Under the pieces are notes generated by a model, which saw only the letters and a list, made by a program, of their open reading frames with translations, did not search any database and was not told the origin of the DNA. Of a stretch of 64,000 bases of DNA, positions 23,525 to 48,938 are shown piece after piece (the first letter of the stretch is position 1; the number at the start of each line of letters is the position of its first letter). Location: NCBI GenBank assembly GCA_002457605.1, contig NTJT01000001.1, forward strand, positions 15,269-79,268, given 5' to 3'. Both the position numbers and the translations under genes were made by a program. Source of the stretch: Marine Group II euryarchaeote MED-G34 (GTDB lineage: Archaea > Thermoplasmatota > Poseidoniia > Poseidoniales > Thalassarchaeaceae).

Positions 23525-23624
23525 GGTGCGGCCGAGGGCGCCTCCCTCAAAAAGGCACCCCCGGTCCTATGGACCGCTTCTCCGAGGGATTGAATACCGC
23601 CCCTATGGTCGCAGAGGCGTTCAG

Positions 23625-31749: not shown

Positions 31750-32865
31750 TCAATCGAATCGATGAAATCCGCCTTCTGGGGTACTGCGCGTCTTTCTTGA
31801 GATATTGAGGGCCTCTCCGAGCATATCTGCGCTCATCATCTCAGCCTCGAGCCGGCTGTTGGCAACTCCGGTGATGATTGACATCACTTTGATGGTGTCT
31901 CCGAAGGCCGGATCTTGTCTGGCTCCGAATATGACGTTGGCATCGGGAGAGAGTCTTGCTGTCATCAGATCACAGACCTGGTTAGCTTGCTCCAGCGTCA
32001 TGTATGGACCACCTGTAACGTGGATGAGAGCACCCGTCGCCCCGTCTATCTCAATGTCGAGAAGCGGATGGTTGAGGGACTCGTGAACTACCTCCTCTGG
32101 ACCTTGGTCACTCTCTCCATAGAGCATCATCGTCACGCCTCCACCCTTCATGATGGCTCGGACATCTGCGAAGTCGAGGTTGATTAGGCTCGGCAGGGTG
32201 ATGGTCTCGACCACTCCCTTGACTATCTCTGCGATGAGCTGGTCCATGATACTGAAGGCTTCGTCGAGAGGCAGGTTTGGGACGAAGTGGAGAAGTCTGT
32301 TGTTATCCAGCACCAGAACTGCGTCGGCCGCCTTCCTGAGTAATTCAAGTCCTTCCAATGCTCTCTGCATTCGCTGTCTGCGCTCGACTGAGAATGGAGT
32401 TGTTACGACGGCCACGACTAGAGCCCCTGAGCGCTTGGCCTCCTCTGCCACGATTGGAGCAATCCCGGTTCCAGTGCCTCCACCTAATCCGGCGGTGACA
32501 AACACTAGGTCAGCCCCACCAACAATCTTGGTGATGACATCTCTACCGGCCTCAGCGCAGCGTCGTCCAGTGACCGGGTCCCCTCCGGCACCAAGTCCGC
32601 GGGTGATGTGCCTGCCGACCAACAATTTCTGCATCGCTCTTGTGTGATCGAGGTGTTGCTTGTCGGTGTTGATCGCTACGGTGACAGCTCCCTCAACACC
32701 GATGTGAGTAATCCGATTCATCGTGTTATTGCCAGAGCCCCCACAACCGCATACTAGGATGCGTGGGTCTGGGGGCCCGTACGATTCGAGCTCCCTATCT
32801 GTCAGCGCTGTTGGAATCCTACCGTCGGGTATCTGATCAATTACTGATGCCGGCGCCTCAACCAT
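31750..32865 (-). CDS. ftsZ: Cell division GTPase FtsZ (tubulin/FtsZ family)
   Basis: GGGTGTG tubulin signature, the NTD.Q.L motif and the T7 loop region. About 371 aa. Confidence 0.85.
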   Translation of the reverse strand: MVEAPASVIDQIPDGRIPTALTDRELESYGPPDPRILVCGCGGSGNNTMNRITHIGVEGAVTVAINTDKQHLDHTRAMQKLLVGRHITRGLGAGGDPVTGRRCAEAGRDVITKIVGGADLVFVTAGLGGGTGTGIAPIVAEEAKRSGALVVAVVTTPFSVERRQRMQRALEGLELLRKAADAVLVLDNNRLLHFVPNLPLDEAFSIMDQLIAEIVKGVVETITLPSLINLDFADVRAIMKGGGVTMMLYGESDQGPEEVVHESLNHPLLDIEIDGATGALIHVTGGPYMTLEQANQVCDLMTARLSPDANVIFGARQDPAFGDTIKVMSIITGVANSRLEAEMMSADMLGEALNISRKTRSTPEGGFHRFD

Positions 32866-34204: not shown

Positions 34205-36589
34205 GTGCGCCGAGCGTCCGCCACCCTACTAATCGCCCTACTGCTGGTCAGTTCAGCACCTCTGGTTCAGGCAGGAGAGAAAGGGGTCATCTCATGCGTC
34301 AACGCCGACCAGTCAATGATGCCGGCAAGTTGGGATCTCGATGATCAGTCATGTGTAAGGGTCGATTTGGGGGAGTTGGAGCCCGGCGAAATTATCTCCT
34401 TCGATTTGACCACTGATTCTGAAATAGATATCCTCATGTTCTCGGTCAACTCGATTTCAGTTTACCAGAATGAGCAGTCATACCGCAGCGATTCGATTTG
34501 GGAGAGGAACTCGGTATTCGAGGAATTCATCGGAACCGGTTCCTGGCACTGGACTGTCCCTGACGATAGGGAGATGACCCGATGGTACCTCGTTCTCGAC
34601 AATCTAGTCCACCCTCAGGATGGAGGAGGTGGCGCTCAGGGAGGTTCGATAGCGTCAATCGCACTAGACTCGGAAATGATCACTCCTGGAACGTTCACCC
34701 TCGCTGACACCATCGTTAGACTCGACCCCGGCGAGCACTCGGTACTGCACGGCCCGTTCATAGTAGACGCTGGCACTCAAGTCAGGATGGAGGCCAACAC
34801 CATGGAGGGAGCTCCCGATGTATTCCTAATGACTTCCTCGCAGGTGGCTCTGTATGAGCAGGGCGGCACCGCAGCCGCACGCGTCGAAGGTACCGACATG
34901 CTACTCATCACTCAGGAACGTGACATGGTCTGGATGGCTACCGAGACTTACGAGGGAGAAGATCTCTATCTGGTGGTCGATAACAGAGCAGGTCCTGCAG
35001 GAGGAGGTGCTGGAACCGAGGATACCGCAGTCACAGTTACACTCACTCTGACCCCGGTACTGGAACCAGTAATCAGCGGAGACGTCTCTCTTGAGATAAT
35101 CAACGTCGGCGACATCGTCACTCTGGACGCTACGCAGACTCCGAACAACTCCGGCCAGATTCCTGAGTCTGGCTTCCATTGGGACACCAACGGAGACGGA
35201 ACAGATGACACTGTAGGGTCGTCTGTGAGTGTCAGTTGGTCAGACCCCACTAATGTCACTATCAGACTTACTGTAGTGGCGATTGACGCGCGTAGCGCCA
35301 GCTCGTATCAGTCAATCGAGGTCGCGGACATTTCTGGGCCCGAAGTAAGCATTGGAGCCTCTGCGATATTGGAACGCACATATGGGGACGATGTGGTACT
35401 CAGTGGGCAGGTGAGTGATAATTGGGGCATCGCCACAATCGAATGGCTCGTCGATGATGTTCTGATACGGACCAATTCGGGCAGCGACGAAGGAGCAACC
35501 GTGTTCAACCATCTGTTCAACTCCAGTTACTCCGCCGGACTCCACACCATCACCCTGAAGGCCACTGACAATTCGGGCATGGTTTCCGAAGACACCGCAA
35601 CTATCAGTCTGTACGACTCCACTCCGCCAGTCATCGGAACACACCAAGAGGAGGTGAATCTGCAGATAGGCCAGACCTTCCGCTTTGAGGCCAACGTCAG
35701 CGATTCCGAATCGAACAACCTGTTATTCTCGTGGGATTTCAACAGCAATGTAGACTCCGATTCTGACGGCGACCCAAGGAACGACAACGACGGTTTTGGA
35801 GACTCGGTGCTGTGGAGTTACGATGCCTCCGGTCCTATGATTGTAGTCTGCCAGATTGAGAACGACGCCGGGCTGGTTTCCGAGTTTGAGGTGCTGGTCA
35901 ATGTGCTCAGTGGTAACGAGGATGATGGATTGGATTTGATGCAGTTGGGACTCATGGCCGCAGCTGCTCTCATAGTGGTAATTCTGATTGCTCTGTTGAC
36001 TTGGCGATTCATGTCTAATCGTAGACTTGCAGCGATGATTGCCGAAGATGATGAGCCTGAGCAGCCTGTATCCGCAGCCCCCTCAGTCGAGGAGCAGAAG
36101 GCCATGTGGGGTGGAGCAGAGCCCACCATGCAGATTGAGCAGCCTGCTCAACAGGTCTTCAATGACTTCTCAAGCGGGATGTCAGGTTCGACCCAAGATA
36201 TCTCCACTGCAATGGGTGAGTCTGAGGGAGAGGAACTGGATCCCGATATCGCAGCTCTGCTACGGTCATCCGAAGAAGAGGATGCCTCAGGCCCAAGTCC
36301 TGCCAAAGAAATCCTATCAGAGTTTGACGAAGATGACTCTGTCGAGAGAGAAGATATCGATTACTCACATGAGACTCAGACTGAGGAAACCGTGTCAAAC
36401 TGGTCTCCCGGAGAGGACGAAAATGAGGTCTTCCAACCTAAAGAAATTGAGTCGGAGCCGGATCGAAAAGTTCGCCAGAATTGCTCTTCGTGTGACAAGA
36501 AGTTCGAGGTCGAACTTCCTCCTGGACTTGACGCCGCTAGGACAGCTTGTCCTCATTGCGGCTCGATTGAATCGATTAGCCTAGGGTGA
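34205..36589 (+). CDS. Large membrane-anchored surface protein with a signal peptide, a 600-aa ectodomain with Ig/PKD-like repeats, one TM helix, an acidic cytoplasmic tail and a C-terminal Cys4 zinc ribbon
   Basis: GTG start (VRRASATLLIALLLVSSAPLVQA). The TM helix is LMAAAALIVVILIALLTWRF. The tail is rich in D/E/S and ends with CSSCDKKFEVELPPGLDAARTACPHCGS. Confidence 0.6.
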   Translation: MRRASATLLIALLLVSSAPLVQAGEKGVISCVNADQSMMPASWDLDDQSCVRVDLGELEPGEIISFDLTTDSEIDILMFSVNSISVYQNEQSYRSDSIWERNSVFEEFIGTGSWHWTVPDDREMTRWYLVLDNLVHPQDGGGGAQGGSIASIALDSEMITPGTFTLADTIVRLDPGEHSVLHGPFIVDAGTQVRMEANTMEGAPDVFLMTSSQVALYEQGGTAAARVEGTDMLLITQERDMVWMATETYEGEDLYLVVDNRAGPAGGGAGTEDTAVTVTLTLTPVLEPVISGDVSLEIINVGDIVTLDATQTPNNSGQIPESGFHWDTNGDGTDDTVGSSVSVSWSDPTNVTIRLTVVAIDARSASSYQSIEVADISGPEVSIGASAILERTYGDDVVLSGQVSDNWGIATIEWLVDDVLIRTNSGSDEGATVFNHLFNSSYSAGLHTITLKATDNSGMVSEDTATISLYDSTPPVIGTHQEEVNLQIGQTFRFEANVSDSESNNLLFSWDFNSNVDSDSDGDPRNDNDGFGDSVLWSYDASGPMIVVCQIENDAGLVSEFEVLVNVLSGNEDDGLDLMQLGLMAAAALIVVILIALLTWRFMSNRRLAAMIAEDDEPEQPVSAAPSVEEQKAMWGGAEPTMQIEQPAQQVFNDFSSGMSGSTQDISTAMGESEGEELDPDIAALLRSSEEEDASGPSPAKEILSEFDEDDSVEREDIDYSHETQTEETVSNWSPGEDENEVFQPKEIESEPDRKVRQNCSSCDKKFEVELPPGLDAARTACPHCGSIESISLG

Positions 36590-36650
36590 TTCATCTACAA
36601 CCTCGGTTATTAGATGCAAAGCCGGTTCCTGTAAGGCAATACCCTATAGC

Positions 36651-36667
36651 GCACCTCTAGGAGGTGC
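36651..36667 (+). promoter_or_regulatory. Perfect 17-nt palindrome GCACCTC-TAG-GAGGTGC immediately upstream of the 36672 start codon. It sequesters the SD-like GGAGGTG and is a candidate translational-control hairpin, terminator or protein-binding site.
   Basis: Read directly from the sequence. 7-bp stem, 3-nt loop. The ATG lies 5 nt downstream. Confidence 0.45.
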
Positions 36668-36671
36668 GAGC

Positions 36672-39600
36672 ATGGGCAACACTGGTATCCGGTTGGTCTC
36701 TAGGGCGCCGAGGGCGAACAATTCGCATACCCTGCTGATGGCCTTGCTGTTCTTGCTCCCTATCCTTTCACCCTTCTCTGCGGTGAGCGGCGAGGCGAGA
36801 ATAGAATCTCAGGACTTCGAGGTACTTGACCAACTGTCCGAAGTACTAGAGGAGCGCCAAGAGATGTTGGACAGTAACTCCGTAGCGCAGTTGGCCCAAC
36901 CAATCATCGAAGGAATAGGTAACTCGGTAGTGCCTACTGGGCCATCTGACCCTCTCGCCAATGTGGATGGATCAATAGATGGAGTGAGTATGGTGACGAC
37001 TACTCCTCCACAACCACAGCATCCTGGCCCCTACAATCTGCTGTTGGACCCCAGTAGCAGTTCTCCCGGCCAAGTCGATAACATCTGGCAGACTCTGGTA
37101 AATCTGACCGACTATGTGATTTGGACAGAGTACATCGACCTCGATGGGAACACAATCCAGAGCTTTGAGGTGGTGACATTCTCAGCCAATCTACTGTCTC
37201 TATTCGACATCAACTCCGAACCTCTTCTGCACGAGATTGACGTCGACAACGACGGGGATGATGACATCGAAGTTGGACTGAAGATTGCCTGGGAGTTCCT
37301 CGGCGGATGGGGGGTGGAAGGGGGAGTGCTTTGGATTGAGCCCGGCATTTCGTACTCGGTCAAGGTACTCGACTCTAGCCAGAATGATCTAGATTGGAAT
37401 ATGATGGACTCGCTGCAAGTATCACTAATCAAGGCATTTGCATATTCCGGGCAGGACTCCATACTGGCCCTCGGAGACGGTGAAACCTACATTTGGGTTG
37501 TCGACTCAAGGTTCACCGCCCAACCGGATGACTTCACTCTCCGAGTAGGAATAGAGAGATTCTATTTCGATATCTCTGGAGCCAGTTCCGATCTAGTATT
37601 CACTCTCATACAGGCACTCACGTTAGGACTAATCAATCAAGGGGCGGATGAGTCCGGAATCACTTTCGCTGCGATTGCCGCACCATACGCGATCGAGTTC
37701 AGGAACCCTGGTGGACGTGACTGCCCGGACCGGTATTCTCCTGACGAGATGCTCTTCGCTACTTACACGGAGCTGAATTGCGGAGTCTCGGCGGGCTTCG
37801 GATACTTACACTTCTCTCCACCCGATGAAAGTGGCGATAGAGACCTCTGGGAACTGGCATACATAGAACTCTCATTCCATCCCAATAAGCAAGCCGTGGT
37901 CATTCCCGAGGAGGCTGACGTAGTCATTAGGACAGATAGCGTTCTGCCCGAGAATAGCATCGTCGACGGTGAGAGGGGACTGACCACAATCGAGTATTGG
38001 GCAGACGAGAGAACCGACTTACATATCCACTTCCACGAGAACAGATCGGAACTCCCTCCTGAGGAATCCAGCGATGGAGGTAGAGGTAATGTGACCGACT
38101 CCGTAGGATGGCTGAGAGGGTTGCCTAAAGGGTCCTTGTCGGAAGGAGAGATAGAGCGCGTTTTCCGTATGCTTGGCTCTGATGGCTCGCGTTCCCAACT
38201 CCCAGGTGAACTCCCACAGAGGCTTGGCTTTATCATCGGAATCAAGAACTTCTCCAGAGACAACAGTGAGAATGTCGACGACCCCACTCTACCGGTAAAT
38301 CCAGCAAACCCTCCTAAGACCCTGATTCTCATACGGTCGGTGCAATCGATAGAGGAACTCAACTATGACTCGTGGTTCATCAGAGAGGGTGCTGCAGAAG
38401 ACCACAGAAAGATACACATCAGAGCGAAAGACCTGCCGACGGCACTGGTTCTCTACGGATCTTTCGAGCTTAGCAGCGGGAGCTCAAGTGAGAGTGGACT
38501 TGACTCAGAAGACAGCCTCGACTTCGTATCGAAGATTGTGGATAATGTCCTAATCAACATAGTCGATTTGTTCTTGGACATAGGAACCATCCTGAATGAC
38601 GTCCCTTCAGCCGTGGTGGATGTAATCAGCGGTGGTGTTGATGGGACCAGTGGCCTCGCGGGCAGGACAGTCCACCTACTTCTTACAGACAACTGGCTAG
38701 TCACCAGATCTGACATGCCGTTAACCAGCCTTTCAATTCAGATAGGTTCGAGTGACCATCCAACTGATTCAGGCGACCATCTGATGCTGGCAAAAGACAG
38801 GGGACTTGGTTTAGTTCAAGGCAGGAACGGACCAATCGAACCCCTAGCGCCAGTAGCGGCTAGCATCGGGTTCAGCGGCCTCATTGCATTCTCTCTAATC
38901 GACGACAACGAGTTGGATGAACAGGTCGTGATACTACGCACCGCATCTGATGAGAGATTCTCATTCACCTACATTGATTATCATTCAAAAACTCTCGAAG
39001 GAGCCTCCTTTGAGGCTCTGACACTCAGTGACATCCCTGACAATCTCTCCATACAAGTATCAGCAAGCGGAATGGAATACCTCGCTTCGTCCGGTATCGA
39101 GTCGATTACCTACGCGGGTATGGACGGCACTCAGCGTCAGGCAGCTACCATTATCGGTGTGCCCGACTCATTCAGCACCACATCAGGCTTCGTCACTGGA
39201 TGGTCATCCTCCACTCCTATCTCATCGATTGAGGCGCAGATTAGCAATTCAACTGACCCTGTCAGATTGACGGGTGACCACTTCCTCTTCCATCATGATC
39301 AGATAACTGGAGCTTCAACAATCTCAACTAGGTTGACCGGGCTCAGCGAAGTTAGTTGGACGGAGCCTTCTGTGGAGGGAGCCTCGGGTCCTGCTGGCCG
39401 GGGAACCGCTCAGATATCGGCGTCAGGCGACCGAGCCCTGAGTATCAACGTCGACCATGCTCCGACTGTGGGGGGTGACTCACTCTCAGTGATTGCCTCA
39501 ATTGACCCACTCCCATCTACTGTCAGAATCCAGATACCGACAGGATCCGACTCAGGAGCCAGTCTCGATGTGCCTGAATTCAACACCTCAAATGGCCTCT

Positions 39601-41057
39601 CTGGAGTAGCTTTCTTCATCAGCGGTTTCGCCGACCTCGGCAGGTCGGTAAACAGCGTCCTATCAGGCATCACCTCAGACATCTCGACCAGCTCGGAGTC
39701 CGAAGAAGACTTCTCCTTCGGCCTCCAGTTGGAGGCCGACTCAACATTCGACTTGACCGTAGAGGCTGTGCATGGCGACGGTTCGCTCAGGGTACCCACT
39801 TGGGTCCATGGGGTCGCCTTTCAGGCATCTCCCTCCGGAATCGCTGATGGCTTCCACTTGAGGATATGGCTACCCGAACTCCCTCCATTAATTGACTTCT
39901 CGATTACTAGGCAGAACAAGGTCAACGGCCAGAACTGGGGTATCAGTGTGGGCCTTGAAGGCTGGGTGCCGGCACATAGCGAACTCATGGTCCAGATTTA
40001 CGGAATCAACGGTCAGGACTTGCTACTGACCCTTCAGGGTCTGACGGTCGGAGCATCTACTAATCTCGGACTCGATGCGGTATTTGAAATCAAATCGGTC
40101 GGTGAAATTACCGAGGTCACAACCTCGACCCACTATGTTCTCTCTGAGAGGTTGGACTGGGTCCACGTCCTTCTAATCAACAGAGAGGCGGGAAGCAGGA
40201 CCGAGGTGATGATTCAGGACATCCCGGAGACCGTTGATTTGCAAGCTAGCATAGGCACGGCGATATCCATTGACATGACCGTTCCCGAACAGTACAGGCG
40301 CGACGGCTCCTCAGTCGGTTCCATCATGATGCAGCAGATGCAGTGGCTGGATTCAGCATGGTGGCCTGCAACGATATTCCTGACCGACGTTCCCGGCTGG
40401 ATTAACCTGACGACAGCCCCCTCGCTTGAGTTCGACATAACTCAAAATCTGGCTTTCCAAGGAACCCCGACGCTTGACTTCAGGGCTTCCGAAGAGGGCA
40501 TGTCATTGTACATAGAGGTCTTTGGTAGGGCGATAAACAAGAGAGGAGACACAATCTTACTAGCTGAGGGAATGACCGATTTCATGTCAATTAGTACCAC
40601 CAAGACATTCGGTCTCTCCATCAGATCAGGTGGCGTTGGGGTCGAACGTCTGTACATCAGGATGAGCAACGTTCCAGTCACACCTCCATTGGTTCTTGAG
40701 GAGATGGAGGCGTTGGGTGAGAACCTACAGCGGGCCACGGTCAACATCAGGGAGCTAGTGGGTCCGTACAGCATCATTGAGATTGATGACGTTCAGGGTG
40801 AGAGAATCATCGTCTCGGCCCGTGCCTCAGCCGACATTGAGGGCAACGAATTCGATCTCAGAGGCGTCCTCCTCGACGCTCAGATTACCGATGGTATTCC
40901 AACCGGTACAACTCTGGGAGTCAATGGAATAGCCTCTGATCTCTCATTGCTCAACATGGTTCCAGGAATGAGCGGCTCGACCAAGCATGTGATGGTCGTA
41001 GAGCCATTCTCATCTGCGATTCTTACGATACTTGCGACGTTCATGGGAGGTGATTAA
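36672..41057 (+). CDS. Giant (1461 aa) secreted protein of unknown function with an N-terminal signal peptide and no obvious membrane anchor
   Basis: An ATG preceded by GGAGGTG. Signal-like N-terminus (LLMALLFLLPILSPFSAVSG). It is Ser/Asp/Gly-rich, with no recognisable catalytic motif and no C-terminal TM helix. Confidence 0.6.
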   Translation: MGNTGIRLVSRAPRANNSHTLLMALLFLLPILSPFSAVSGEARIESQDFEVLDQLSEVLEERQEMLDSNSVAQLAQPIIEGIGNSVVPTGPSDPLANVDGSIDGVSMVTTTPPQPQHPGPYNLLLDPSSSSPGQVDNIWQTLVNLTDYVIWTEYIDLDGNTIQSFEVVTFSANLLSLFDINSEPLLHEIDVDNDGDDDIEVGLKIAWEFLGGWGVEGGVLWIEPGISYSVKVLDSSQNDLDWNMMDSLQVSLIKAFAYSGQDSILALGDGETYIWVVDSRFTAQPDDFTLRVGIERFYFDISGASSDLVFTLIQALTLGLINQGADESGITFAAIAAPYAIEFRNPGGRDCPDRYSPDEMLFATYTELNCGVSAGFGYLHFSPPDESGDRDLWELAYIELSFHPNKQAVVIPEEADVVIRTDSVLPENSIVDGERGLTTIEYWADERTDLHIHFHENRSELPPEESSDGGRGNVTDSVGWLRGLPKGSLSEGEIERVFRMLGSDGSRSQLPGELPQRLGFIIGIKNFSRDNSENVDDPTLPVNPANPPKTLILIRSVQSIEELNYDSWFIREGAAEDHRKIHIRAKDLPTALVLYGSFELSSGSSSESGLDSEDSLDFVSKIVDNVLINIVDLFLDIGTILNDVPSAVVDVISGGVDGTSGLAGRTVHLLLTDNWLVTRSDMPLTSLSIQIGSSDHPTDSGDHLMLAKDRGLGLVQGRNGPIEPLAPVAASIGFSGLIAFSLIDDNELDEQVVILRTASDERFSFTYIDYHSKTLEGASFEALTLSDIPDNLSIQVSASGMEYLASSGIESITYAGMDGTQRQAATIIGVPDSFSTTSGFVTGWSSSTPISSIEAQISNSTDPVRLTGDHFLFHHDQITGASTISTRLTGLSEVSWTEPSVEGASGPAGRGTAQISASGDRALSINVDHAPTVGGDSLSVIASIDPLPSTVRIQIPTGSDSGASLDVPEFNTSNGLSGVAFFISGFADLGRSVNSVLSGITSDISTSSESEEDFSFGLQLEADSTFDLTVEAVHGDGSLRVPTWVHGVAFQASPSGIADGFHLRIWLPELPPLIDFSITRQNKVNGQNWGISVGLEGWVPAHSELMVQIYGINGQDLLLTLQGLTVGASTNLGLDAVFEIKSVGEITEVTTSTHYVLSERLDWVHVLLINREAGSRTEVMIQDIPETVDLQASIGTAISIDMTVPEQYRRDGSSVGSIMMQQMQWLDSAWWPATIFLTDVPGWINLTTAPSLEFDITQNLAFQGTPTLDFRASEEGMSLYIEVFGRAINKRGDTILLAEGMTDFMSISTTKTFGLSIRSGGVGVERLYIRMSNVPVTPPLVLEEMEALGENLQRATVNIRELVGPYSIIEIDDVQGERIIVSARASADIEGNEFDLRGVLLDAQITDGIPTGTTLGVNGIASDLSLLNMVPGMSGSTKHVMVVEPFSSAILTILATFMGGD

Positions 41058-41058
41058 A

Positions 41059-41613
41059 ATGGGACTGCTAGAGAAGCTAAGGAGTGAGGACGAGGAGGCT
41101 GACACCCAGATTGCCCACGAGGTGTTAGAGCGAATCGAGGAGGAAGCTAGGAGACACATCTCACCGACTCGAGTGATTTTCGCCTCTGTGGCAGTCATGC
41201 TTCTGCTCGTTGCGAGCCTGTTTGTATTGACCTGGATTGTTCCATACGACCGTGTAAGTGTAGACGTGGTGTATAGACAAGGGGGCCCTGGCCACGTAGT
41301 TCTGGTCGAACTCGACAACGATGGCAGCCGTACCATCGAAGACATCGATCTGCAGGTTAGATTCATCGACTCAGAAGGAATAGAGATTTCTCGATCATCA
41401 TTTCTCAGGGACAACCTACCGGCTCACTCGTCGGTTTCAGGGGACGACATGGAACTACTGGTTGACGGCGCCTCAGTGTGGGAGAATTACACCATCGAAA
41501 TTCTGCTCTACTACGACTCCTACGCTGGCCAGAGGAGTGAGAGATGGACTCACAATGTGGGAGAGTGGACAATGGAGATATTCTCTGACAAGTCGCAGTA
41601 CCGATTCCTGTAG
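41059..41613 (+). CDS. Single-pass (type II) membrane protein with a 120-aa extracytoplasmic beta-rich domain
   Basis: ATG at 41059, 1 nt after the upstream stop (the ORF-track start at 41032 was rejected). Acidic N-terminus, TM helix VIFASVAVMLLLVASLFVLTWIV, then the domain. Confidence 0.5.
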   Translation: MGLLEKLRSEDEEADTQIAHEVLERIEEEARRHISPTRVIFASVAVMLLLVASLFVLTWIVPYDRVSVDVVYRQGGPGHVVLVELDNDGSRTIEDIDLQVRFIDSEGIEISRSSFLRDNLPAHSSVSGDDMELLVDGASVWENYTIEILLYYDSYAGQRSERWTHNVGEWTMEIFSDKSQYRFL

Positions 41614-41632
41614 TGTCCAATCATGACTTTTC

Positions 41633-41651
41633 ATGGGTTCGTAGAACCCAT
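41633..41651 (+). terminator. Hairpin ATGGGTTC-GTA-GAACCCAT (8-bp stem, 3-nt loop) between the 41059 gene and the subtilase gene
   Basis: Read directly from the sequence. It lies 20 nt after the stop at 41613. Confidence 0.35.
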
Positions 41652-41684
41652 ACGCTCAAATTGAGGAGGACGAGGCGATAGCCG

Positions 41685-44600
41685 ATGACAAAGCGCTTAG
41701 TGACACTGATGATGACAATTCTTCTGTTGTCCTACGCCCCTATTCTCGATCAGTCGCCTACTGAGGGAAATACCACTGTGGAATCCTTGGATCGCGTGGT
41801 CGAGAAAGTGGAAATTTCTCCTGACCCAAACAGCATTCAAGACCTCGGCGCCCCACAAATCTACTCTGGCTTCGAAGATTTCCGGGCGACAAGAGCCGAC
41901 TCCACCATTGGCGTCTACACTCAAGCAGGATTACTCCCCTCAGTTCAGATGAGCGTCGAGTTGGCTAATCCACGAAACGACCTCGCAATAGTTCTCATCG
42001 ATGGCGAAGTTGGCCTCTGGGAGGCGAGGCAGGCCCTACTCGAAGCAGCTGATGTTGAAGTCAGGTCTACCATTCCTCCCTCTGGATTCCTAGTGCAGGC
42101 TACACCCGAAAGTATCTCCGCACTTTCTCAAATCAAAGAGGTTGAAGCCGTACACGAAGTCCCAGCCGGCCTTCTGGTTCACCCTGATTTGAGAATGGCT
42201 AACGGGGACCAAACACTCCTCGTCGAAGTACTTGGTTGGAAGAACTCGGACCTAGTCCGACAAGACCAACCAGGTATGGGTTTCGAGGATTCTTTGAACA
42301 TCGCCGCATCACTCTGGATGGAGGAGGCGTGGTCACCAGAGGAGGGTAGAATGTGGGGTATGATATCACCTAGTGAAGTGGCTGATTTAGCCAGACATTC
42401 TTCTGTCGCTTATGTCGCCCCTATGCCCCTTCTAGTTCTGCATAACGACCAAGCTAGGGTCCACATGGGAATCAACTCAGTTGAGACCACCTTCATCACT
42501 GGATTGAATGGTAGCGGGCAGAAGATTGCTGTGGGTGATTCCGGCCTCGACGACGACCACGGAGACTTCACAGGACGAATCGCCGGCCTGACTTCGGTCA
42601 CCCCTGGAGATTCATCGACAGCAGATCTCTCAGACGGGCACGGCACTCATGTTGCTTGCACAGTGTTGGGTGACGGATTTCGTAGCAGTGGCACCTACCA
42701 GGGAATAGCACCCGAGGCCCAAGTTTACTTCCAGGCTATGGAGGACGACGATACTGGACAGTTGTACAGTTACGGCATCAATAGTATGTTGAATTCTGCT
42801 TACAATAACGGCGCCCGATTGCACACAAACAGTTGGGGCGCTGGTAGTGGAGGCGGCAGTTATTCGACCCAATCAGAGGATGCGGACTCCCGCACCTCGA
42901 CATGGGATCAATACTGGTCTTATCAGGGTATGACCGTGCTGTTCGCAGCCGGCAACGAGAGGAACGAAGGAGTCTCACCACCTGGGACTGCAAAGAACGT
43001 CATCACTGTCGGCGGACACAAGAATCGATACAGCGGTGCTCCTGATGAGATGTACTACTGGAGCAGCCGTGGTCCGACTGATGATGGGAGAATCAAACCA
43101 GACCTAGTCGCCCCCGGGGACTACGTCAGGTCGTGCAAATCGCAGGAGGCGGACAGCGCTCAGGGTTCATGGAGTAACAACTGGTACCTCGAGTATAGTG
43201 GCACCTCGATGTCCACCCCAGCTGCTGCCGGAGCGTCTGTCCTAGTCAGAGAGTACCTGATGGAGGTGATTGGTAGGCAGGCGCCACAAGGCGCCCTAAT
43301 CAAGGGACTTCTGATACTCGGTGCTCAGGATATGGGTACTCGGGATATACCCAACAACGATGAGGGGTGGGGCCGACTGAATCTCGTCGAGTCGCTGATT
43401 CCAGACAGTGATGTTGGTATCTTCGTCGACGACCGCTCCCGACTCTCTAGTGGACAGACGAGCGAGTACTCCTTCGATATCACCCGTGCGGGCGAGCCGA
43501 TGAAGGTGGTACTGACTTGGTCTGACTATCCTGGCTCATCTTCTTCTTCGACTCAACTTAGGAACGACCTCGACCTTGAGGTCATATCTCCCAACGGACA
43601 GATTACGTACAAAGGCAACGCCTTCGTAAACGGACGATCAGTCAATGGCGGGACCAAGGACTCCACCAATAACGTCGAGGTTGTGCTAATCGACAACGCA
43701 GCCACGGGAACGTGGACTGTGCGCGTGCGCGACGCCCAGCATGGCGGTAGCCGGACTTGGCAGCCATACGCTCTCGCTGTTCGCGGCGTCAATGTCAATG
43801 ATTTGAGTCCAGATCCAACCTTTGTCCAGAACTCATTTGAGATTTCATCCCCTATTCCTCAAGTCGGAGAGGAGGTCGATGTTTCCGTCATCATTCAGAA
43901 CCAAGGTGCCGGTTCGGTCGCCGACCTCTCGGTCATCGCCCGAGCCGACAGCAATCTGCTTGGCACCCATCAGTTGAGTATGTCTCCTGGGGAATCGGCA
44001 GTACTCGAGTGGAACTGGACGCCGACACAAGAGGGAGATGTGGAGTTCACATTCCACATAGATCCGAGTGATACAGTAGAGGAAGTCTCAGAGACTAACA
44101 ATTACCTCACTCATACTGTCATTGTCAGCGCACCAGGGGTCAGGGTGTCCTCAGAACAGGAAACCGTCACTCTCGGTGATGCGACAGACAGTTCGACCAC
44201 TTGGCAACTCTCACTGATGAATACCGCTCTGTTCGAGACCAACGCTACAATAGAGGTCAGTGACCCTGTTCGGATGCAGGATGGAGTGCAATACGATTGG
44301 TTCACGTCGTTTACCTCAAACACCTTCAATCTCGAGGCAGCCGAAACTGAATTAGTCAGTCTGACTATGGTGCATCCCGCACCCCCTCCCCCTGGACTCT
44401 ACAGTATGGTGGTTACTGGTACAGACGTTGAGAATAGCGTCACCTCAGAGCTGGTGATATTCTTCGACGTGCCAGTGCTGGCTGGAGCTGAAATTGTGAT
44501 GCCAGGGGAGCAGTTCCTCGTGAGTCCGCTTGAGTCCACAGAACTGCAGATACTGGTCTTCAACGAGGGCAACGGCGCTCAGGCCTATGATGTGGAACTG

Positions 44601-46178
44601 GTATCCCCCGCGGGCTGGCATCTCGGATTCGACACGCTTGGCGCCTTCGCTGGATCTTCACACGGTTCGACCGGGACCATGGCTAGGGACGCTGGACGAA
44701 CAGTCGACATCACAATCAATCCTCCAGGTGCTATGATTCCTGCAGGATCCGTTTTTGATGCTGCGATAATCATCCACTCACGAGTCAGTTCCGACTCTTG
44801 GAGCGAGGACATTTCACTTGTGGTCAAGGCGATAGACGAGGTCAGTACTACACCTTCATCCGACGGAGCAGAGCACGACATCTCTCCCGACGCACTACTG
44901 GAAATCGAGGTGGATCTCAGCAATCTGGGAAATCGGATGCTGGACCTACAGCCGTATGTGCGCAACATCCCTGGAGGATGGACTGTATCAGGAGGGCTGG
45001 ACACCATCAGCATCCCCGCGGGAGAATCTGGTGTTTGGTCTGTGGCTCTACAGGGCAACGGAGTAGCTGTTAGTGGGGATTTCGAACTCAGATTCGCTAC
45101 TGATGATGGCTTTTACATAGACTGGAACCGAACTCTAAACGTCCTTTCAGGAGCAATTCCCTCTCTGAGTTTCCACATGGTCGCTCTGCCCGATGGAACC
45201 GTCTCAGACTATCCACTTGGAGTTGGATCTCACCCAGTTGGTGAGCCCGGCTTCGACCTTGCTTGGACAGTTACCAATCAAGGCTCTACCACATGGCGAC
45301 CTACTACTTACCTCGAGGTTCCTGACGATGATTGGTCATCGAGTTGTTCCGCTCCCTCTACGCTTTCAGCAGGCGCCTCATCCACAGTTTGGTGCACTGT
45401 AGTAATACCTCTGTCAGCCGAGGCCTTATCCGAACCCATCATCACACTAGTTATGCAAGGTGAAGGCGTTGAGGTGAGCGATTCGATATCACTACTGGTT
45501 GAGTCTGTTGCTAGAGTGAGTTGGACTTTGAACAATCAACCTACAGGGCATGAGGGCTACCCGACTACACTGTACATCGATTTACAGAACACCGGCAATT
45601 CGGAGATATCTCACATTCTCCAAGTATCTGGTCCTGAGGGTTGGGCCCCTCTAATTCTCGATGGAGTAGTGGTTAACTTGAGACCCGGAGAGACCCGGAG
45701 TCTTGATGTCGGATTCACTCCTAATTCTGGGAGCGATGGGATTCTAGTGGTCGAATTGGCCGATGCCGATGACGTCGAAGATTTCTCATTCAGCATGGAA
45801 ATCGACGTACTTCCGGCTGCTAAGGTGCAAGGAACATCAATTCTAGAGACACTAATGATTGCAGTTTTGGTACTCGCGCTGGTCGGTGGTGGCCTCTATG
45901 TTTACTCCCGTAGGGGAAAAGACTCCTCAAGTCTGATTCAAACTGAAGCACTGAGTAAGATAGCCGATAGTTTCGGGTTGGGTGAGAAGGAGATAGTAGA
46001 GAGCAGTGGAGTCCCCTGCTGGATTTGTAGTCAGGACATCACATTAGAGGCGGCATGGGCCTGTTCCGAGTGCGGTGCTAGATATCACAGGGCAGGTCAG
46101 GTGCAGGGCTGCGACGTCCTCTCCATGGGCAACTGCCTGCACTGCGACGCCCCTTCCGAAGATCTCGTTGAAGTGTGA
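41685..46178 (+). CDS. Membrane-anchored S8 (subtilisin-like) serine protease. Its ectodomain (about 1350 aa) carries multiple CARDB/COG1361-like repeats, followed by a TM helix and a cytoplasmic tail ending in Cys-rich zinc-ribbon motifs.
   Basis: Catalytic triad blocks VGDSGLDDDHGDF (Asp), DGHGTHVACTVLG (His) and GTSMSTPAAAGASVLVREY (Ser). Repeats of the x-V-x-N-x-G-N/S type (IIQNQGAGSVADLSV, ILVFNEGNGAQAYDV, WTVTNQGSTTW, IDLQNTGNSEISHIL). TM helix TLMIAVLVLALVGGGLYVY. Tail CWICSQD...CSECG...GCDVLSMGNCLHCD. Confidence 0.8.
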   Translation: MTKRLVTLMMTILLLSYAPILDQSPTEGNTTVESLDRVVEKVEISPDPNSIQDLGAPQIYSGFEDFRATRADSTIGVYTQAGLLPSVQMSVELANPRNDLAIVLIDGEVGLWEARQALLEAADVEVRSTIPPSGFLVQATPESISALSQIKEVEAVHEVPAGLLVHPDLRMANGDQTLLVEVLGWKNSDLVRQDQPGMGFEDSLNIAASLWMEEAWSPEEGRMWGMISPSEVADLARHSSVAYVAPMPLLVLHNDQARVHMGINSVETTFITGLNGSGQKIAVGDSGLDDDHGDFTGRIAGLTSVTPGDSSTADLSDGHGTHVACTVLGDGFRSSGTYQGIAPEAQVYFQAMEDDDTGQLYSYGINSMLNSAYNNGARLHTNSWGAGSGGGSYSTQSEDADSRTSTWDQYWSYQGMTVLFAAGNERNEGVSPPGTAKNVITVGGHKNRYSGAPDEMYYWSSRGPTDDGRIKPDLVAPGDYVRSCKSQEADSAQGSWSNNWYLEYSGTSMSTPAAAGASVLVREYLMEVIGRQAPQGALIKGLLILGAQDMGTRDIPNNDEGWGRLNLVESLIPDSDVGIFVDDRSRLSSGQTSEYSFDITRAGEPMKVVLTWSDYPGSSSSSTQLRNDLDLEVISPNGQITYKGNAFVNGRSVNGGTKDSTNNVEVVLIDNAATGTWTVRVRDAQHGGSRTWQPYALAVRGVNVNDLSPDPTFVQNSFEISSPIPQVGEEVDVSVIIQNQGAGSVADLSVIARADSNLLGTHQLSMSPGESAVLEWNWTPTQEGDVEFTFHIDPSDTVEEVSETNNYLTHTVIVSAPGVRVSSEQETVTLGDATDSSTTWQLSLMNTALFETNATIEVSDPVRMQDGVQYDWFTSFTSNTFNLEAAETELVSLTMVHPAPPPPGLYSMVVTGTDVENSVTSELVIFFDVPVLAGAEIVMPGEQFLVSPLESTELQILVFNEGNGAQAYDVELVSPAGWHLGFDTLGAFAGSSHGSTGTMARDAGRTVDITINPPGAMIPAGSVFDAAIIIHSRVSSDSWSEDISLVVKAIDEVSTTPSSDGAEHDISPDALLEIEVDLSNLGNRMLDLQPYVRNIPGGWTVSGGLDTISIPAGESGVWSVALQGNGVAVSGDFELRFATDDGFYIDWNRTLNVLSGAIPSLSFHMVALPDGTVSDYPLGVGSHPVGEPGFDLAWTVTNQGSTTWRPTTYLEVPDDDWSSSCSAPSTLSAGASSTVWCTVVIPLSAEALSEPIITLVMQGEGVEVSDSISLLVESVARVSWTLNNQPTGHEGYPTTLYIDLQNTGNSEISHILQVSGPEGWAPLILDGVVVNLRPGETRSLDVGFTPNSGSDGILVVELADADDVEDFSFSMEIDVLPAAKVQGTSILETLMIAVLVLALVGGGLYVYSRRGKDSSSLIQTEALSKIADSFGLGEKEIVESSGVPCWICSQDITLEAAWACSECGARYHRAGQVQGCDVLSMGNCLHCDAPSEDLVEV

Positions 46179-46184
46179 ATTTAC

Positions 46185-46203
46185 CGCGACCCAAGGGGTC
46201 GCG
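46185..46203 (+). terminator. GC-rich hairpin CGCGACCC-AAG-GGGTCGCG (8-bp stem, 3-nt loop) 7 nt after the subtilase stop
   Basis: Read directly from the sequence. No T-tract follows. Confidence 0.4.
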
Positions 46204-46244
46204 TCGCCCGAAGTCCTTAGAGGGACGGTTATGTCGGGGTGCCG

Positions 46245-48938
46245 ATGAAGCGCAGTTCATCTGCCATCATTCTAACCGCGATGTTGCTGCTCACAATCGT
46301 AACACCGTTAGCCGCAGCAGCGGTATCAGTGTCCCTTTCTGCCAATCCTACGGCTCAGGAGGCTACCACAGATGACGACGCTGAGTACGACATCATCGTG
46401 ACCAATGACGGGGATGAGGACATCTCAGTGTCTCTCAGCACGCAGCAGGGAAATGACTGCAATGGATTCAGCTCCTCCTTGGACACGTTCCAAGTCTCGG
46501 TTAACGAAGGTGAGTCTGAGACCGTCAAACTAACCGTCACCGTGAATGACCAGGCCGATGGCGACTGTGAGACGACGGTGAACGCCCAAGCTACTGGTGG
46601 ACTAGGATCTCCTGCCAGCGACGATGTCACAGTGACGACAACCGCAGGTGATGGTGGCGGACTCTACTCGGTGAAGCTGACTACAGATGAGCAGTTGAAG
46701 ACCTACGACGGCGACTCGACCGAGTCCGACAGCGTCGTTTGGGATGTCGAGGTTGAGAACAACGGCGAGCAACAGGCAAACGTTCAACTGGAAATGACTT
46801 CAGACAGTGACTGCGAGTCTGATACTCTCGATGCCACCGTAGACCCTCAGGTTCTGCAATTGGACCCAGAGGACAAAGAGACTGTCGAAGTGACTGTGGA
46901 CGTGCCTGACGGCAGTTCAACCGAAGCGGGAGATCACTGCTTCATCCTCAAAGCCACTGTGACCAACGATCCCAATGCGGCCGACCAAGCCGAGGACAAC
47001 ATCACCCTGACTCTCAAGATACCGGAGCGCAAGGATTGTGATCCCGATCTGCAGTTCACCTCGCACAACCTCGATCCGGGAGATTCGGCCACCAACTCGT
47101 TCGAGGTCGAGAACATTGGGAACACGGAGTGGACCGTGACTGCCAACGCACAGGCTCAGGACTCCGACCACGATATTGCAGGATGGGTGGACTTCGACAG
47201 TCCCCTGAGCAAACTTCTCTCTGAGCCAGGCGGTTCGCAGGATAGCCATACTTTCACCTTCAGTGTGACTCCTGATGATTCCATCGAATCTGGGACACAA
47301 GTGGGGATCAAGATTCAGGGGCGTGCTGGGACTTCAATCGGATGTGAGCAGATTCTAACTGTCACCGTCGGCCAGAGCCACGGTGCTTCCATGACCCTGA
47401 GCAAGAACAAACTCAGCAATGTCGAGCCGGGCAGTTCTGACACAGTCACAGTCCAGATTACCAATCAAGGGAATGGCATGGAGACCATGTCCATCGGCGC
47501 CACAGGACTGCCTCCGGGATGGCAGATTTCATTCTCTCAGACTTCAGTGACCATCGGTAGTTCACACTCCGGCAATAACAAAGAGACAGTGACTGCAGAG
47601 ATATTCGTTCCCGAGGACGCTAGCGCTGCCGAGGACACGGTCATTACCTTCACAGTCGGACGTGGCGGAGGTAGCACTCCTTACGACACCAAGGACCTCA
47701 CAGTGTCAGTGGCTGCGCGTCATAGCGTCACCACTTCGATACTCTCAACCCAGCAGACAGGCCGAACGGAACAGACAATCCAGTTTCCCATAGATGTGAC
47801 CAACTCGGGAAACATTCAGGACACTTTCAAGCTGCAGGCCTGCGACCCAGGAGATAACACAGGATGCAACTCTCCGATGTGGGAGTCGTCATTCTCCGAT
47901 TCGCAGGGAAACACAATCTCACAAATTATTCTCGACCCCAGTCAGAAGCAGACCATCTATCTCGACATCTTAGTCGAGGGTGAGGAGGACGCTGATTCGG
48001 TCAGCGTGCTTGCACGGATAGCTATCTATGGGACCTCAGTGGCGGACGAGCACACTGTCAGTGTGGTGGTCTCGAACTTCAACTACGCAATGGCTATCTC
48101 CCCTCAGAATCCCGGTGAGGTACCTGACCAGATTGAAGCAACCCTTCCTCCGGGTGGTTCCATGACCGCCGCATTCTGGGTCGAGAACACAGGGGACTAT
48201 CCTGGAGGGGACAAAGCCGTGATTACCGTCATCGGTATGGAGTCGTCAGTGCTCAGGACGATGACGATTGAAGGCGTCGAGATTGATGGGACAGTGACGC
48301 TGGGGATGGGAGAGAGAGTACTTGTCGAGGTCCATATCGACGTTCTCGAAGGAGTTGCAAACGGAGTCTCTGGCGTAGTCAAGGTTAGTGCTTCTTCGGA
48401 GAGGAACACAGCTCAGAGCACTTCGGTTGATATTGTGGTTGAGGTGAGGACCATCCACGATCTCAGATTCACACTCGAAGGCGAGGACGAGCAGACCTCC
48501 GAATATCCAGACAAGGCCTATTTCGTCCTCTACATCACTAACCATGGCAACATTGTCGAAGATGTCCAAGTTCTATCCAGTGAATCTCTTAGGGGTTGGA
48601 CCGTCAATGTCGATTTCGACGAGTTTGAACTTGAACCTGGACTGACAAAAGAGGTTCAGGTTAGTGTCACACCACCTAGCGATTTACTCGACGATGATAC
48701 CTACATGTTCACTGTCACTGTGCAACCCGAGGGGATTGCAGTCGCTGGTGAACCCATCGATTTGACGGTGACCTCACAGATGCCATCGACCTTCATCGGC
48801 CTGTCTGAGGAAATGGCTCAGGCGCTCGTCTACGGGTCTATTGTTCTGGGCGCAATTTTGGTCATCGTACTGTTCTTTCGCTCTCGTTCGGAGAACCGCC
48901 GAATAGTCGAAGCACTCGAAAATCAGTTTGAGGACTAG
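46245..48938 (+). CDS. Surface (S-layer-like) protein with a signal peptide, at least 7 tandem CARDB/COG1361-like beta-sandwich repeats and a C-terminal TM anchor with a short basic tail
   Basis: ATG at 46245 (MKRSSSAIILTAMLLLTIVTPLAAAA). Repeats IIVTNDGDEDISVSL, VEVENNGEQQANVQL, FEVENIGNTEWTVTA, VQITNQGNGMETMSI, IDVTNSGNIQDTFKL, FWVENTGDYPGGDKAV, LYITNHGNIVEDVQV. C-terminus ALVYGSIVLGAILVIVLFFRSRSENRR. Confidence 0.65.
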   Translation: MKRSSSAIILTAMLLLTIVTPLAAAAVSVSLSANPTAQEATTDDDAEYDIIVTNDGDEDISVSLSTQQGNDCNGFSSSLDTFQVSVNEGESETVKLTVTVNDQADGDCETTVNAQATGGLGSPASDDVTVTTTAGDGGGLYSVKLTTDEQLKTYDGDSTESDSVVWDVEVENNGEQQANVQLEMTSDSDCESDTLDATVDPQVLQLDPEDKETVEVTVDVPDGSSTEAGDHCFILKATVTNDPNAADQAEDNITLTLKIPERKDCDPDLQFTSHNLDPGDSATNSFEVENIGNTEWTVTANAQAQDSDHDIAGWVDFDSPLSKLLSEPGGSQDSHTFTFSVTPDDSIESGTQVGIKIQGRAGTSIGCEQILTVTVGQSHGASMTLSKNKLSNVEPGSSDTVTVQITNQGNGMETMSIGATGLPPGWQISFSQTSVTIGSSHSGNNKETVTAEIFVPEDASAAEDTVITFTVGRGGGSTPYDTKDLTVSVAARHSVTTSILSTQQTGRTEQTIQFPIDVTNSGNIQDTFKLQACDPGDNTGCNSPMWESSFSDSQGNTISQIILDPSQKQTIYLDILVEGEEDADSVSVLARIAIYGTSVADEHTVSVVVSNFNYAMAISPQNPGEVPDQIEATLPPGGSMTAAFWVENTGDYPGGDKAVITVIGMESSVLRTMTIEGVEIDGTVTLGMGERVLVEVHIDVLEGVANGVSGVVKVSASSERNTAQSTSVDIVVEVRTIHDLRFTLEGEDEQTSEYPDKAYFVLYITNHGNIVEDVQVLSSESLRGWTVNVDFDEFELEPGLTKEVQVSVTPPSDLLDDDTYMFTVTVQPEGIAVAGEPIDLTVTSQMPSTFIGLSEEMAQALVYGSIVLGAILVIVLFFRSRSENRRIVEALENQFED

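Follow-up and report, generated by a model that had tools for sequence, protein, structure and literature searches.

Five consecutive genes on the plus strand, named here A to E, lie in a stretch of 64,000 nucleotides from the Marine Group II (MGII) euryarchaeote MED-G34 (assembly GCA_002457605.1, contig NTJT01000001.1, positions 15,269 to 79,268; this whole stretch is referred to as the window). Their products are all exported or membrane-inserted, each carrying a signal peptide or a transmembrane (TM) helix in sequence-based prediction. An initial annotation, made from the DNA alone, had described them as an island of giant secreted or anchored proteins built around a membrane-anchored subtilase and covering about a quarter of the window. 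The five predicted open reading frames (ORFs) were all recovered on the plus strand with matching coordinates (Table 1), and together they account for 14.7 kb or 23% of the window, in agreement with that estimate. The gene orders compared below indicate that the cluster is a core, tightly linked locus with a fixed position across the order Poseidoniales, and its products are discussed as possible parts of one cell-surface assembly.

The five gene products

Gene B encodes a signal peptide followed by about 1400 residues which have no Pfam, NCBIfam or PDB sequence match and contain no canonical TM anchor. Two AlphaFold models rest on a shallow alignment of 44 family members. Covering residues 36-1235 (predicted local distance difference test, pLDDT, 73.3; predicted template modelling score, pTM, 0.71) and 700-1461 (pLDDT 76.4, pTM 0.74), they consist almost wholly of β-strands of 8-18 residues in consecutive hairpins (β-meanders), with two helices of about 30 residues. 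Matches to the modelled fold are generic, pointing to a "large curved antiparallel sheet" and no more. The family alignment has a mean column identity of about 70%, two invariant cysteines (Cys351 and Cys370) and, at residues 190-198, an invariant DxDxDGDDD motif which suggests a calcium site.

At its extreme C-terminus B carries a conserved peptide, HVMVVEPFSSAILTILATFMGGD, with the pattern His-φφφ-(P/E)-x-P-φ-(S/T)(S/T)-x3-T-φφ (φ, hydrophobic), directly followed by the end of the protein. Across the family, the tail generally consists of a His, three to four hydrophobic residues, (Pro/Glu)-x-Pro and a closing stretch of 11-15 residues, most of them small or hydrophobic, that runs to the terminus, as in HYIIPEPVGSLLGSL..., HLLVPAPILTVIATLFS and HIVAIEPISSAIATGVATIL. 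It is kept from the MGIIb lineage to relatives in other Thermoplasmata, at 15-30% overall identity, and appears as a low-confidence helix in the AlphaFold model. With Pro-Glu-Pro, Pro-Ala-Pro or Glu-Pro-φ before a hydrophobic stretch at the C-terminus, the B-family tails resemble the PEP-, PGF- and PEF-CTERM signals of exosortase and archaeosortase substrates in position and proline motif, but this stretch has only 11-15 residues and is not followed by a terminal basic cluster. Moreover, ten B-family tails searched against NCBIfam, including its C-terminal sorting-signal (CTERM) models, gave no match at E ≤ 10. The tail was not filed as a CTERM signal because it has neither a full-length helix nor a basic end nor an NCBIfam match. 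Membership of B among the archaeosortase substrates was likewise dropped, given the lack of a CTERM match. No sortase gene was seen among the scanned ORFs, which represent part of those in the window.

Gene C starts at ATG 41059, one base past the stop codon of B, and not at TTG 41032, because its orthologues start with MGLLEK at this position and a Shine-Dalgarno-like GGAGGTGA precedes it. The 184-aa product has the single TM helix, oriented N-in, that had been annotated; a charged cytoplasmic N-terminus of about 38 amino acids (aa) precedes the helix and a β-rich ectodomain of about 125 aa follows it. The spacer from the stop of B to the start of C ranges from -14 to +2 nucleotides (nt) in 76 of 76 MGIIb loci, and those of the other gene pairs from 54 to 88 nt (C-D) and from 52 to 67 nt (D-E). 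The genome sequences indicate that B and C are translationally coupled and co-inherited across the class Thermoplasmata. The initial description of B as a 1461-aa secreted protein with no anchor is right as regards the signal peptide and the lack of a canonical TM helix, but B is probably not anchorless, because it shares a weakly hydrophobic C-terminal peptide with its whole family and is obligately coupled to the membrane protein C. On the simplest reading, the tail would serve to attach B to C or to the surface of the membrane.

The subtilase encoded by gene D begins with a region of about 270 aa past the signal peptide, which is presumed to be the propeptide. The catalytic domain was recognised in Pfam as Peptidase_S8 (148.3 bits against a cut-off of 21.8, E 3.8e-43, residues 276-563), and P_proprotein scored 22.0 bits against a cut-off of 21. 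Residues 272-682 align with KP-43 of Bacillus (PDB entry 1wmd; E 9.2e-74) as far as chain residue 417, so that both the catalytic domain and the C-terminal β-barrel are covered. The catalytic residues D285 (VGDSG), H319 (HGTHV) and S508 (GTSMS), together with the oxyanion residue N424 (AAGNE), are in register with those of 1wmd and of SubHal (5fax), and all four are unchanged in the window protein and the 49 orthologues compared with it (50 of 50 sequences). As judged from these residues, D is a catalytically intact, KP-43-like S8 protease. The alignment of the triad and the TM helix thus bear out the call of a 1497-aa membrane-anchored subtilase. The closest database matches are 97% identical and are named 'S8 family serine peptidase [Candidatus Thalassarchaeum sp.]'; D has already been counted in MGII peptidase inventories and is a new member of a known family.

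KP-43 is secreted as a free enzyme of 434 residues, whereas D is extended by the N-terminal region, a stalk of about 660 aa, a TM helix and a zinc finger. Among very large surface S8 proteases with C-terminal β-sandwich extensions, pyrolysin, lactocepin (PrtP) and C5a peptidase are comparable. D has weak local matches to the streptococcal cell-envelope proteinases, at residues 453-569 only, and unlike D these proteinases are held by LPXTG or other anchors rather than by a TM helix and do not belong to a conserved five-gene module. The zinc finger at the tail end of D follows the pattern C-x2-C-x11-C-x2-C-x4-H-x7-C-x7-C-x2-C. Its ligands are invariant in 49-50 of 50 MGIIb sequences and are also present in MGIIa and in a third lineage, represented by contig L085, while the Pfam models Prok-RING_1, DZR (double zinc ribbon) and PHD all scored below threshold. 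As had been stated, the ectodomains of the cluster match no characterised enzyme apart from the S8 core in Pfam, NCBIfam and PDB sequence and profile searches.

Gene E encodes a signal peptide, about seven immunoglobulin-like (Ig-like) modules of about 118 aa (residues 28-860) and, after these, a TM helix with a short basic tail. It scores above the curated threshold for the NCBIfam choice-of-anchor T family (NF041740, 90 bits against 70, over five stretches), which places it with CARDB/NEW3/COG1361-type surface proteins under a name that denotes architecture and not function. With 57.7 bits it stays under the cut-off (110) of the PACE-CTERM putative S-layer (surface layer) model, NF033506, and PDB sequence and profile searches gave no match. 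Searched singly against Pfam, four of the roughly seven modules match the NEW3/FixG_C/DUF11 group, two of them at gathering score. The annotated 898 aa with at least seven repeats and a TM helix therefore need small changes: the modules and the helix are there, the length is 899 or 897 aa depending on the start codon, and Pfam matches four modules.

The ectodomain repeats of D had been called the same as those of E. When taken one at a time, only a CARDB domain at residues 724-809 (E 3e-16) and a NEW3 domain at residues 1291-1351 (E 1e-6) are significant in D, and the four fragments that cover residues 810-1290 have no Pfam match. The two families as a whole align collinearly, however, with D 727-1348 corresponding to E 164-813 in hhalign (579 columns, probability 98.8%, E 1.3e-16). 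Repeat matches between modules range from 1e-5 to 1e-8 in blastp, and the modules of both proteins are of the NxGN type of Ig. From this collinear profile alignment it follows that the stalk of D, TM helix included, is a paralogue of E. D appears to be in effect an E-type pillar in which a protease head replaces the first module, and the collinearity means that the two would reach about equally far out from the membrane.

Gene A encodes the anchored protein of 794 aa that had been annotated, with a signal peptide and a TM helix. Its residues 323-568 match the PKD domains of ColH and KIAA0319L in the PDB profile search (E 1e-7). The conserved residues 25-290 look, by eye in the alignment, like two tandem copies; no match to the N-terminal half was found in PDB sequence or profile searches, and hhalign detected no relationship between A and E beyond the TM segment. 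On the C-terminal side of the helix, an acidic low-complexity (disordered) tail of about 150 aa leads to a zinc ribbon (Zn_ribbon_8, E 4e-7, below gathering score), whose four cysteines are invariant in 68-69 of 69 sequences. The ribbon is kept in MGIIb and L085 and is absent from the MGIIa orthologue (L084:6587-8863). A is the fastest-evolving of the five proteins, with 35-55% identity between MGIIb genera and 31% to MGIIa.

Table 1. Features of the cluster and of the rest of the window, with coordinates in the window
Feature	Coordinates	Strand	Description or basis
Gene A, 794 aa	34205..36589	+	signal peptide, N-terminal region, PKD domains, TM helix, acidic tail, zinc ribbon
A, three PKD-type Ig domains, residues ~291-575	35075..35929	+	Pfam and PDB profile search
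A, TM helix, residues 581-603	35945..36013	+	hydropathy peak 2.87
A, cytoplasmic CxxC...CxxC zinc ribbon	36482..36559	+	C760, C763, C782, C785; Zn_ribbon_8
Gene B, 1461 aa	36672..41057	+	signal peptide, then all-β giant protein; uncharacterised family
B, conserved C-terminal peptide	40986..41054	+	B-family alignment
Gene C, 184 aa	41059..41613	+	type II (N-in) single-pass membrane protein
Gene D, 1497 aa	41685..46178	+	prepro-subtilase, Ig-domain stalk, TM helix, cytoplasmic zinc finger
D, S8 catalytic domain and KP-43/P-domain-like β-barrel, residues 272-690	42498..43754	+	1wmd alignment, Pfam
D, stalk of about six Ig-like modules, residues 727-1348	43863..45728	+	hhalign against E family
D, TM helix, residues 1386-1408	45840..45908	+	hydropathy/topology
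D, cytoplasmic C4HC3 zinc finger	46017..46145	+	C1445, C1448, C1460, C1463, H1468, C1476, C1484, C1487
Gene E, 899 aa from GTG 46239 (897 aa from ATG 46245)	46239..48938	+
E, TM helix, residues 862-884	48822-48890	+	hydropathy/topology
PRC-barrel protein gene, 84 aa	33847-34101	+	between L15e and A
FtsZ	31750-32865	-	just upstream of the cluster, opposite strand
ORF of 275 aa	30870-31697	-	between HisRS and FtsZ; no Pfam match
M14 zinc carboxypeptidase (872 aa) and SNF-family sodium symporter	23175-27586	+	3' end of the first overlaps the start of the second
SNF-family sodium symporter	25790-27586	+	downstream partner of the M14 carboxypeptidase gene
MMPL/RND-type membrane transporter, 1088 aa	2696-5962	+	sterol-sensing-like domain

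Gene order in Poseidoniales and in other Thermoplasmata

A motif scan with one genome per GTDB species returned 171 genomes with a B relative, from which 80 MGIIb loci were kept and compared by tblastn. The order L15e-PRC-A-B-C-D-E-nuoA-nuoB was found in all 80 species loci, wherever the contig reaches, with identities to the window of 35-100% for A, 45-98% for B and 44-99% for E. A GTDB contig of Ca. Thalassarchaeum sp. (L038) is 98-100% identical over the whole locus, and three further MGIIb contigs have the same arrangement. This match and the naming of the closest D relatives assign the window to an MGIIb archaeon of the Thalassarchaeaceae. Flanked again by L15e and nuoA, the cluster recurs in MGIIa (L084, GCA_002170075.2) and in the third lineage (L085, a 3.0-Mb contig), where identities to the window fall to 31 and 31% for A, 37 and 35% for B, 40 and 42% for C, 41 and 42% for D, and 35 and 36% for E, respectively. 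These two contigs depart from the arrangement only in that an additional MBL-fold gene precedes A in both and that, in L085, four small genes separate A from B. NCBI taxon 274854 is presumably the 2012 reference MGII genome. The D orthologue of a published MGIIb metagenome-assembled genome (MAG), whose gene table lists the same run of genes, is assigned there to MG2_0429 of this taxon, a locus tag that comes six places after that of L15e and four ahead of that of nuoB (PMC9723583). The comparison of gene order that the initial annotation had called for thus found A-E linked in the 80 MGIIb loci, L084 and L085, and unlinking was not seen.

Relatives of B extend beyond this order. With HMMER, the B profile had 212 matches at E ≤ 1e-3 among 1.84 billion cluster representatives, including divergent full-length relatives. 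A group of about 1560 aa is named 'Candidatus Poseidoniaceae archaeon'. The profile also detects proteins of about 1250-1310 aa and of 1630-1940 aa, with 15-30% identity and no Pfam domain, and the named ones among these distant relatives are MAG proteins of a 'Thermoplasmata archaeon', 'Thermoplasmatota archaeon' or 'Euryarchaeota archaeon'. Eight contigs of distant, non-Poseidoniales relatives, located by exact protein, were examined. In six of the eight, the B-like gene is directly followed by a gene of 148-204 aa, which overlaps it or starts at most 130 nt away. All six followers are recognised by the hidden Markov model (HMM) of the C family, with scores of 14-33 bits; among 824 decoy ORFs taken from these loci, the highest score is 7 bits. 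Common to the six are the N-in TM helix, a P-R-(T/A) motif immediately behind it, where MGIIb C has P-Y-D, and an N-x-G motif.

No S8, E-like or A-like gene is adjacent in any of the eight distant loci; in L089, an S8 gene of 603 aa, which is unrelated, lies about 7 kb upstream. Linkage of A, D and E to B-C was seen only in Poseidoniales. In L088 (3801-22259), the B-like/C-like pair is flanked by genes of 1479 aa (FG-GAP/Big_7), 1449 aa (no Pfam match) and >2665 aa, another set of giant-protein genes that has gathered around the pair. Because B-C occurs in other Thermoplasmata without any subtilase, the core of the cluster is this pair and not D, contrary to the initial view of a cluster built around the protease. 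The distribution points to B-C as an ancient two-gene unit of several Thermoplasmata lineages.

The surroundings of the cluster consist of housekeeping genes. On the upstream side of the window lie histidyl-tRNA synthetase (HisRS), the 275-aa ORF, FtsZ, ribosomal protein L15e and the 84-aa PRC-barrel gene, and nuoA-B-C-D follow directly downstream of E. The distant loci border on PAC2, eIF2α, S27e, L44e, a mevalonate-kinase-type GHMP gene and FtsZ-NusG-L11. The guanine-cytosine (GC) content of 0.52-0.55 across the cluster is the same as that of its flanks, and no integrase, tRNA or mobility gene was found at its borders. The five same-strand genes do form a linked surface module, but the term island does not apply, given the lack of any compositional deviation and the fixed position from rpl15e/PRC to nuo. 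Acquisition as a genomic island by horizontal transfer was ruled out by the GC content, the missing mobility genes, the fixed synteny and the presence of the locus in every genome examined.

Several further features were observed around the locus. The PRC-barrel gene occupies the same place in all MGIIb loci and in MGIIa, and it was not counted as a member of the module. The MBL-fold (Lactamase_B) gene just upstream of A is found at L084:5557-6561, between PRC and A, and at L085:3481-4605, and is absent in MGIIb. FtsZ lies close to the cluster in the window and immediately precedes the B-like gene in a distant Thermoplasmata contig (L090:8841-9923), a proximity which could reflect an ancestral neighbourhood or coincidence. 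A GC-rich hairpin, GCACCTC-TAG-GAGGTGC, is present in the A-B spacer (36590-36671), overlapping a Shine-Dalgarno-like sequence of B, and a second one, CGCGACCC-AAGG-GGTCGCG, just 3' of D in the D-E spacer (46179-46244); these could be processing or attenuation elements. The M14 carboxypeptidase and SNF symporter genes, 8 kb upstream of the cluster, look like a peptidase-plus-uptake pair.

An envelope assembly and its alternatives

The reading favoured here, to which we give slightly less than an even chance, is that A-E are parts of one envelope-type cell-surface assembly of MGII archaea, within which physical contact among the five proteins is predicted. In the ancient core, the β-rich ectodomain of C would hold the co-made secreted B at the cell surface, with the Pro-x-Pro-hydrophobic peptide of B as the likely docking or tethering element. 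Poseidoniales would have added a pair of paralogous pillars, D and E, each anchored at its C-terminus and built of six to seven Ig-like modules. E would be plain, and D would bear an active KP-43-type subtilase at the distal end and, within the cell, a zinc finger. The membrane protein A, with its PKD domains and its zinc ribbon in the cytoplasm, would be a further part. E and D may stand beside or beneath the B layer, with the protease a pillar's length above the membrane (some 20-30 nm, as a rough estimate) and within or under B. There D would cleave extracellular proteins for uptake and possibly mature its partners, and the cytoplasmic zinc modules of D and A may tie the assembly to something inside the cell. 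We infer the physical association, the roles of B as canopy and C as anchor, and the substrate. The housekeeping surroundings of the locus in every lineage, together with its unremarkable composition, were counted in favour of this reading.

SlaA, a protein of about 1,400 aa, belongs to a system of similar layout. In Sulfolobales, slaA and slaB are bicistronic and encode a large β-rich canopy and a β-sandwich membrane stalk (PMC5744192). As in B-C, the gene for a large β-rich secreted protein lies directly upstream of, and is coupled to, that of a smaller membrane anchor, in the same order. The two systems differ in that no sequence or fold similarity was detected between them, C is anchored by an N-terminal helix and SlaB by a C-terminal one, B ends in its conserved hydrophobic peptide, and the transcripts of the B cluster are moderate; no coiled coil is evident in C, for which no dedicated coiled-coil prediction was made. 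A second comparison is offered by Staphylothermus marinus, in which the subtilisin-family STABLE protease is bound to the tetrabrachion S-layer and has been proposed to process precursors and supply peptides (PMC5744192). Both STABLE and D are subtilisin-family proteases held on the envelope away from the membrane, but STABLE sits non-covalently on a coiled-coil stalk, whereas D has its own Ig stalk, TM anchor and zinc finger. That B-C constitutes a hitherto unrecognised outer layer, canopy and anchor, of Poseidoniales and many uncultured Thermoplasmata, with a fold that has no solved relative, a new docking peptide and, in MGII, an integrated subtilase, is a further-reaching proposal which we regard as rather unlikely. 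If true, the B-C layer with its pillar-mounted subtilase would be the second archaeal envelope with a built-in enzyme after that of Staphylothermus.

A number of observations weigh against an envelope role. No sequence or fold similarity was detected between B and solved S-layer proteins, the B models are of only medium confidence and come from a shallow alignment, and N-glycosylation sequons are few, with 9 in B and 1 in E. The ectodomain of C has no detectable relation to the modules of E and D, since hhalign of C against E aligned the TM segment only. Furthermore, as B-C occurs elsewhere without A, D and E, these three could be functionally independent neighbours which share regulation. Finally, a major S-layer protein is expected near the top of transcript levels. 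In an MGIIb MAG, the transcripts of A, B, D and E stand at 0.17, 0.13, 0.13 and 0.17 (PMC9723583, supplementary file 4), about the level of nuoA-C and of the housekeeping genes nearby, but 10-50 times lower than the ribosomal proteins S27e and L44e, in one MAG and one data set (PMC9723583). A subtilase significantly depleted in dark incubation (PMC9723583, supplementary file 7) is gene 558 and not the D orthologue, gene 395, and the dark-depletion result can therefore not be used for D.

The moderate transcripts, the missing S-layer similarity and the few sequons keep a role in feeding alone a serious, if not a likely, rival. D would then be a digestive tethered protease and A, B and E accessories that bind substrates or particles, with no structural envelope role, supplying peptides and amino acids to a protein-scavenging photoheterotroph. 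Studies of MGII treat S8 and sedolisin-like peptidases as core extracellular peptidases which degrade high-molecular-weight protein (PMC6336850, PMC6864105, PMC9723583). KP-43, the closest solved relative of D, is a broad-specificity secreted protease; the window itself holds an M14 carboxypeptidase in an operon with an SNF-type symporter, and moderate expression suits an enzyme system better than a wall. This leaves unexplained the conservation of B-C across Thermoplasmata without the protease, the stalk of D as a length-matched paralogue of E, and the conserved cytoplasmic zinc modules of D and A. Adhesion to particles, algae or other cells through the PKD and CARDB-type Ig domains is considerably less probable than feeding. 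Such domains, and NEW3, are common in adhesins, and MGII cells are sometimes particle-associated (PMC6864105), but the coastal populations studied were mostly free-living (PMC6864105). An adhesion module would moreover leave the intact protease unexplained, and the locus is universal and single-copy, with a strongly conserved B, where adhesins are typically variable.

If D were instead mainly a maturation protease, a convertase or sheddase for its neighbours, it might remove the C-terminal peptide of B or free B from C. The S8 domain with a P-domain-like β-barrel is the architecture of proprotein convertases, D and B are linked throughout Poseidoniales, the conserved terminal peptide of B is of a kind often removed by processing, and for the STABLE protease a role on the tetrabrachion precursor has been proposed (PMC5744192). 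B-like proteins keep the same peptide in lineages without an adjacent S8 gene, however, so that handling of the tail cannot depend on D; enzymes of the KP-43 type are not specific convertases, and no cleavage site is identifiable from the sequence. We consider this role improbable. That the five genes are unrelated neighbours or a horizontally acquired island is barely credible: it has the unusual gene sizes in its favour and nothing else, and it is opposed by the flank-like composition, the lack of an integrase or tRNA and the identical order in more than 80 genomes, down to 31% identity.

Significance for Marine Group II

Marine Group II is among the most abundant groups of planktonic archaea and, to our knowledge, has never been cultured. 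The breakdown of proteins outside the cell is considered the basis of its part in the carbon cycle, and literature searches found no account of its cell surface. The fixed five-gene module, the paralogy of D and E, the cytoplasmic zinc modules and the domain-less B-C pair with its conserved tail did not turn up in these searches either.

The locus supplies a set of candidates for envelope and protease components which is common to the whole order and in which every member has a defined topology. It also sets an ancient, Thermoplasmata-wide B-C pair apart from A, D and E as later additions of Poseidoniales. These offer specific targets for metaproteomics, for the interpretation of cryo-electron tomography and for heterologous expression. 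Furthermore, the 'core extracellular S8 peptidase' of MGII represented by D is, on its predicted topology, not a free enzyme: it is tethered to the membrane, carries a zinc finger on the cytoplasmic side and belongs to a fixed five-gene context.

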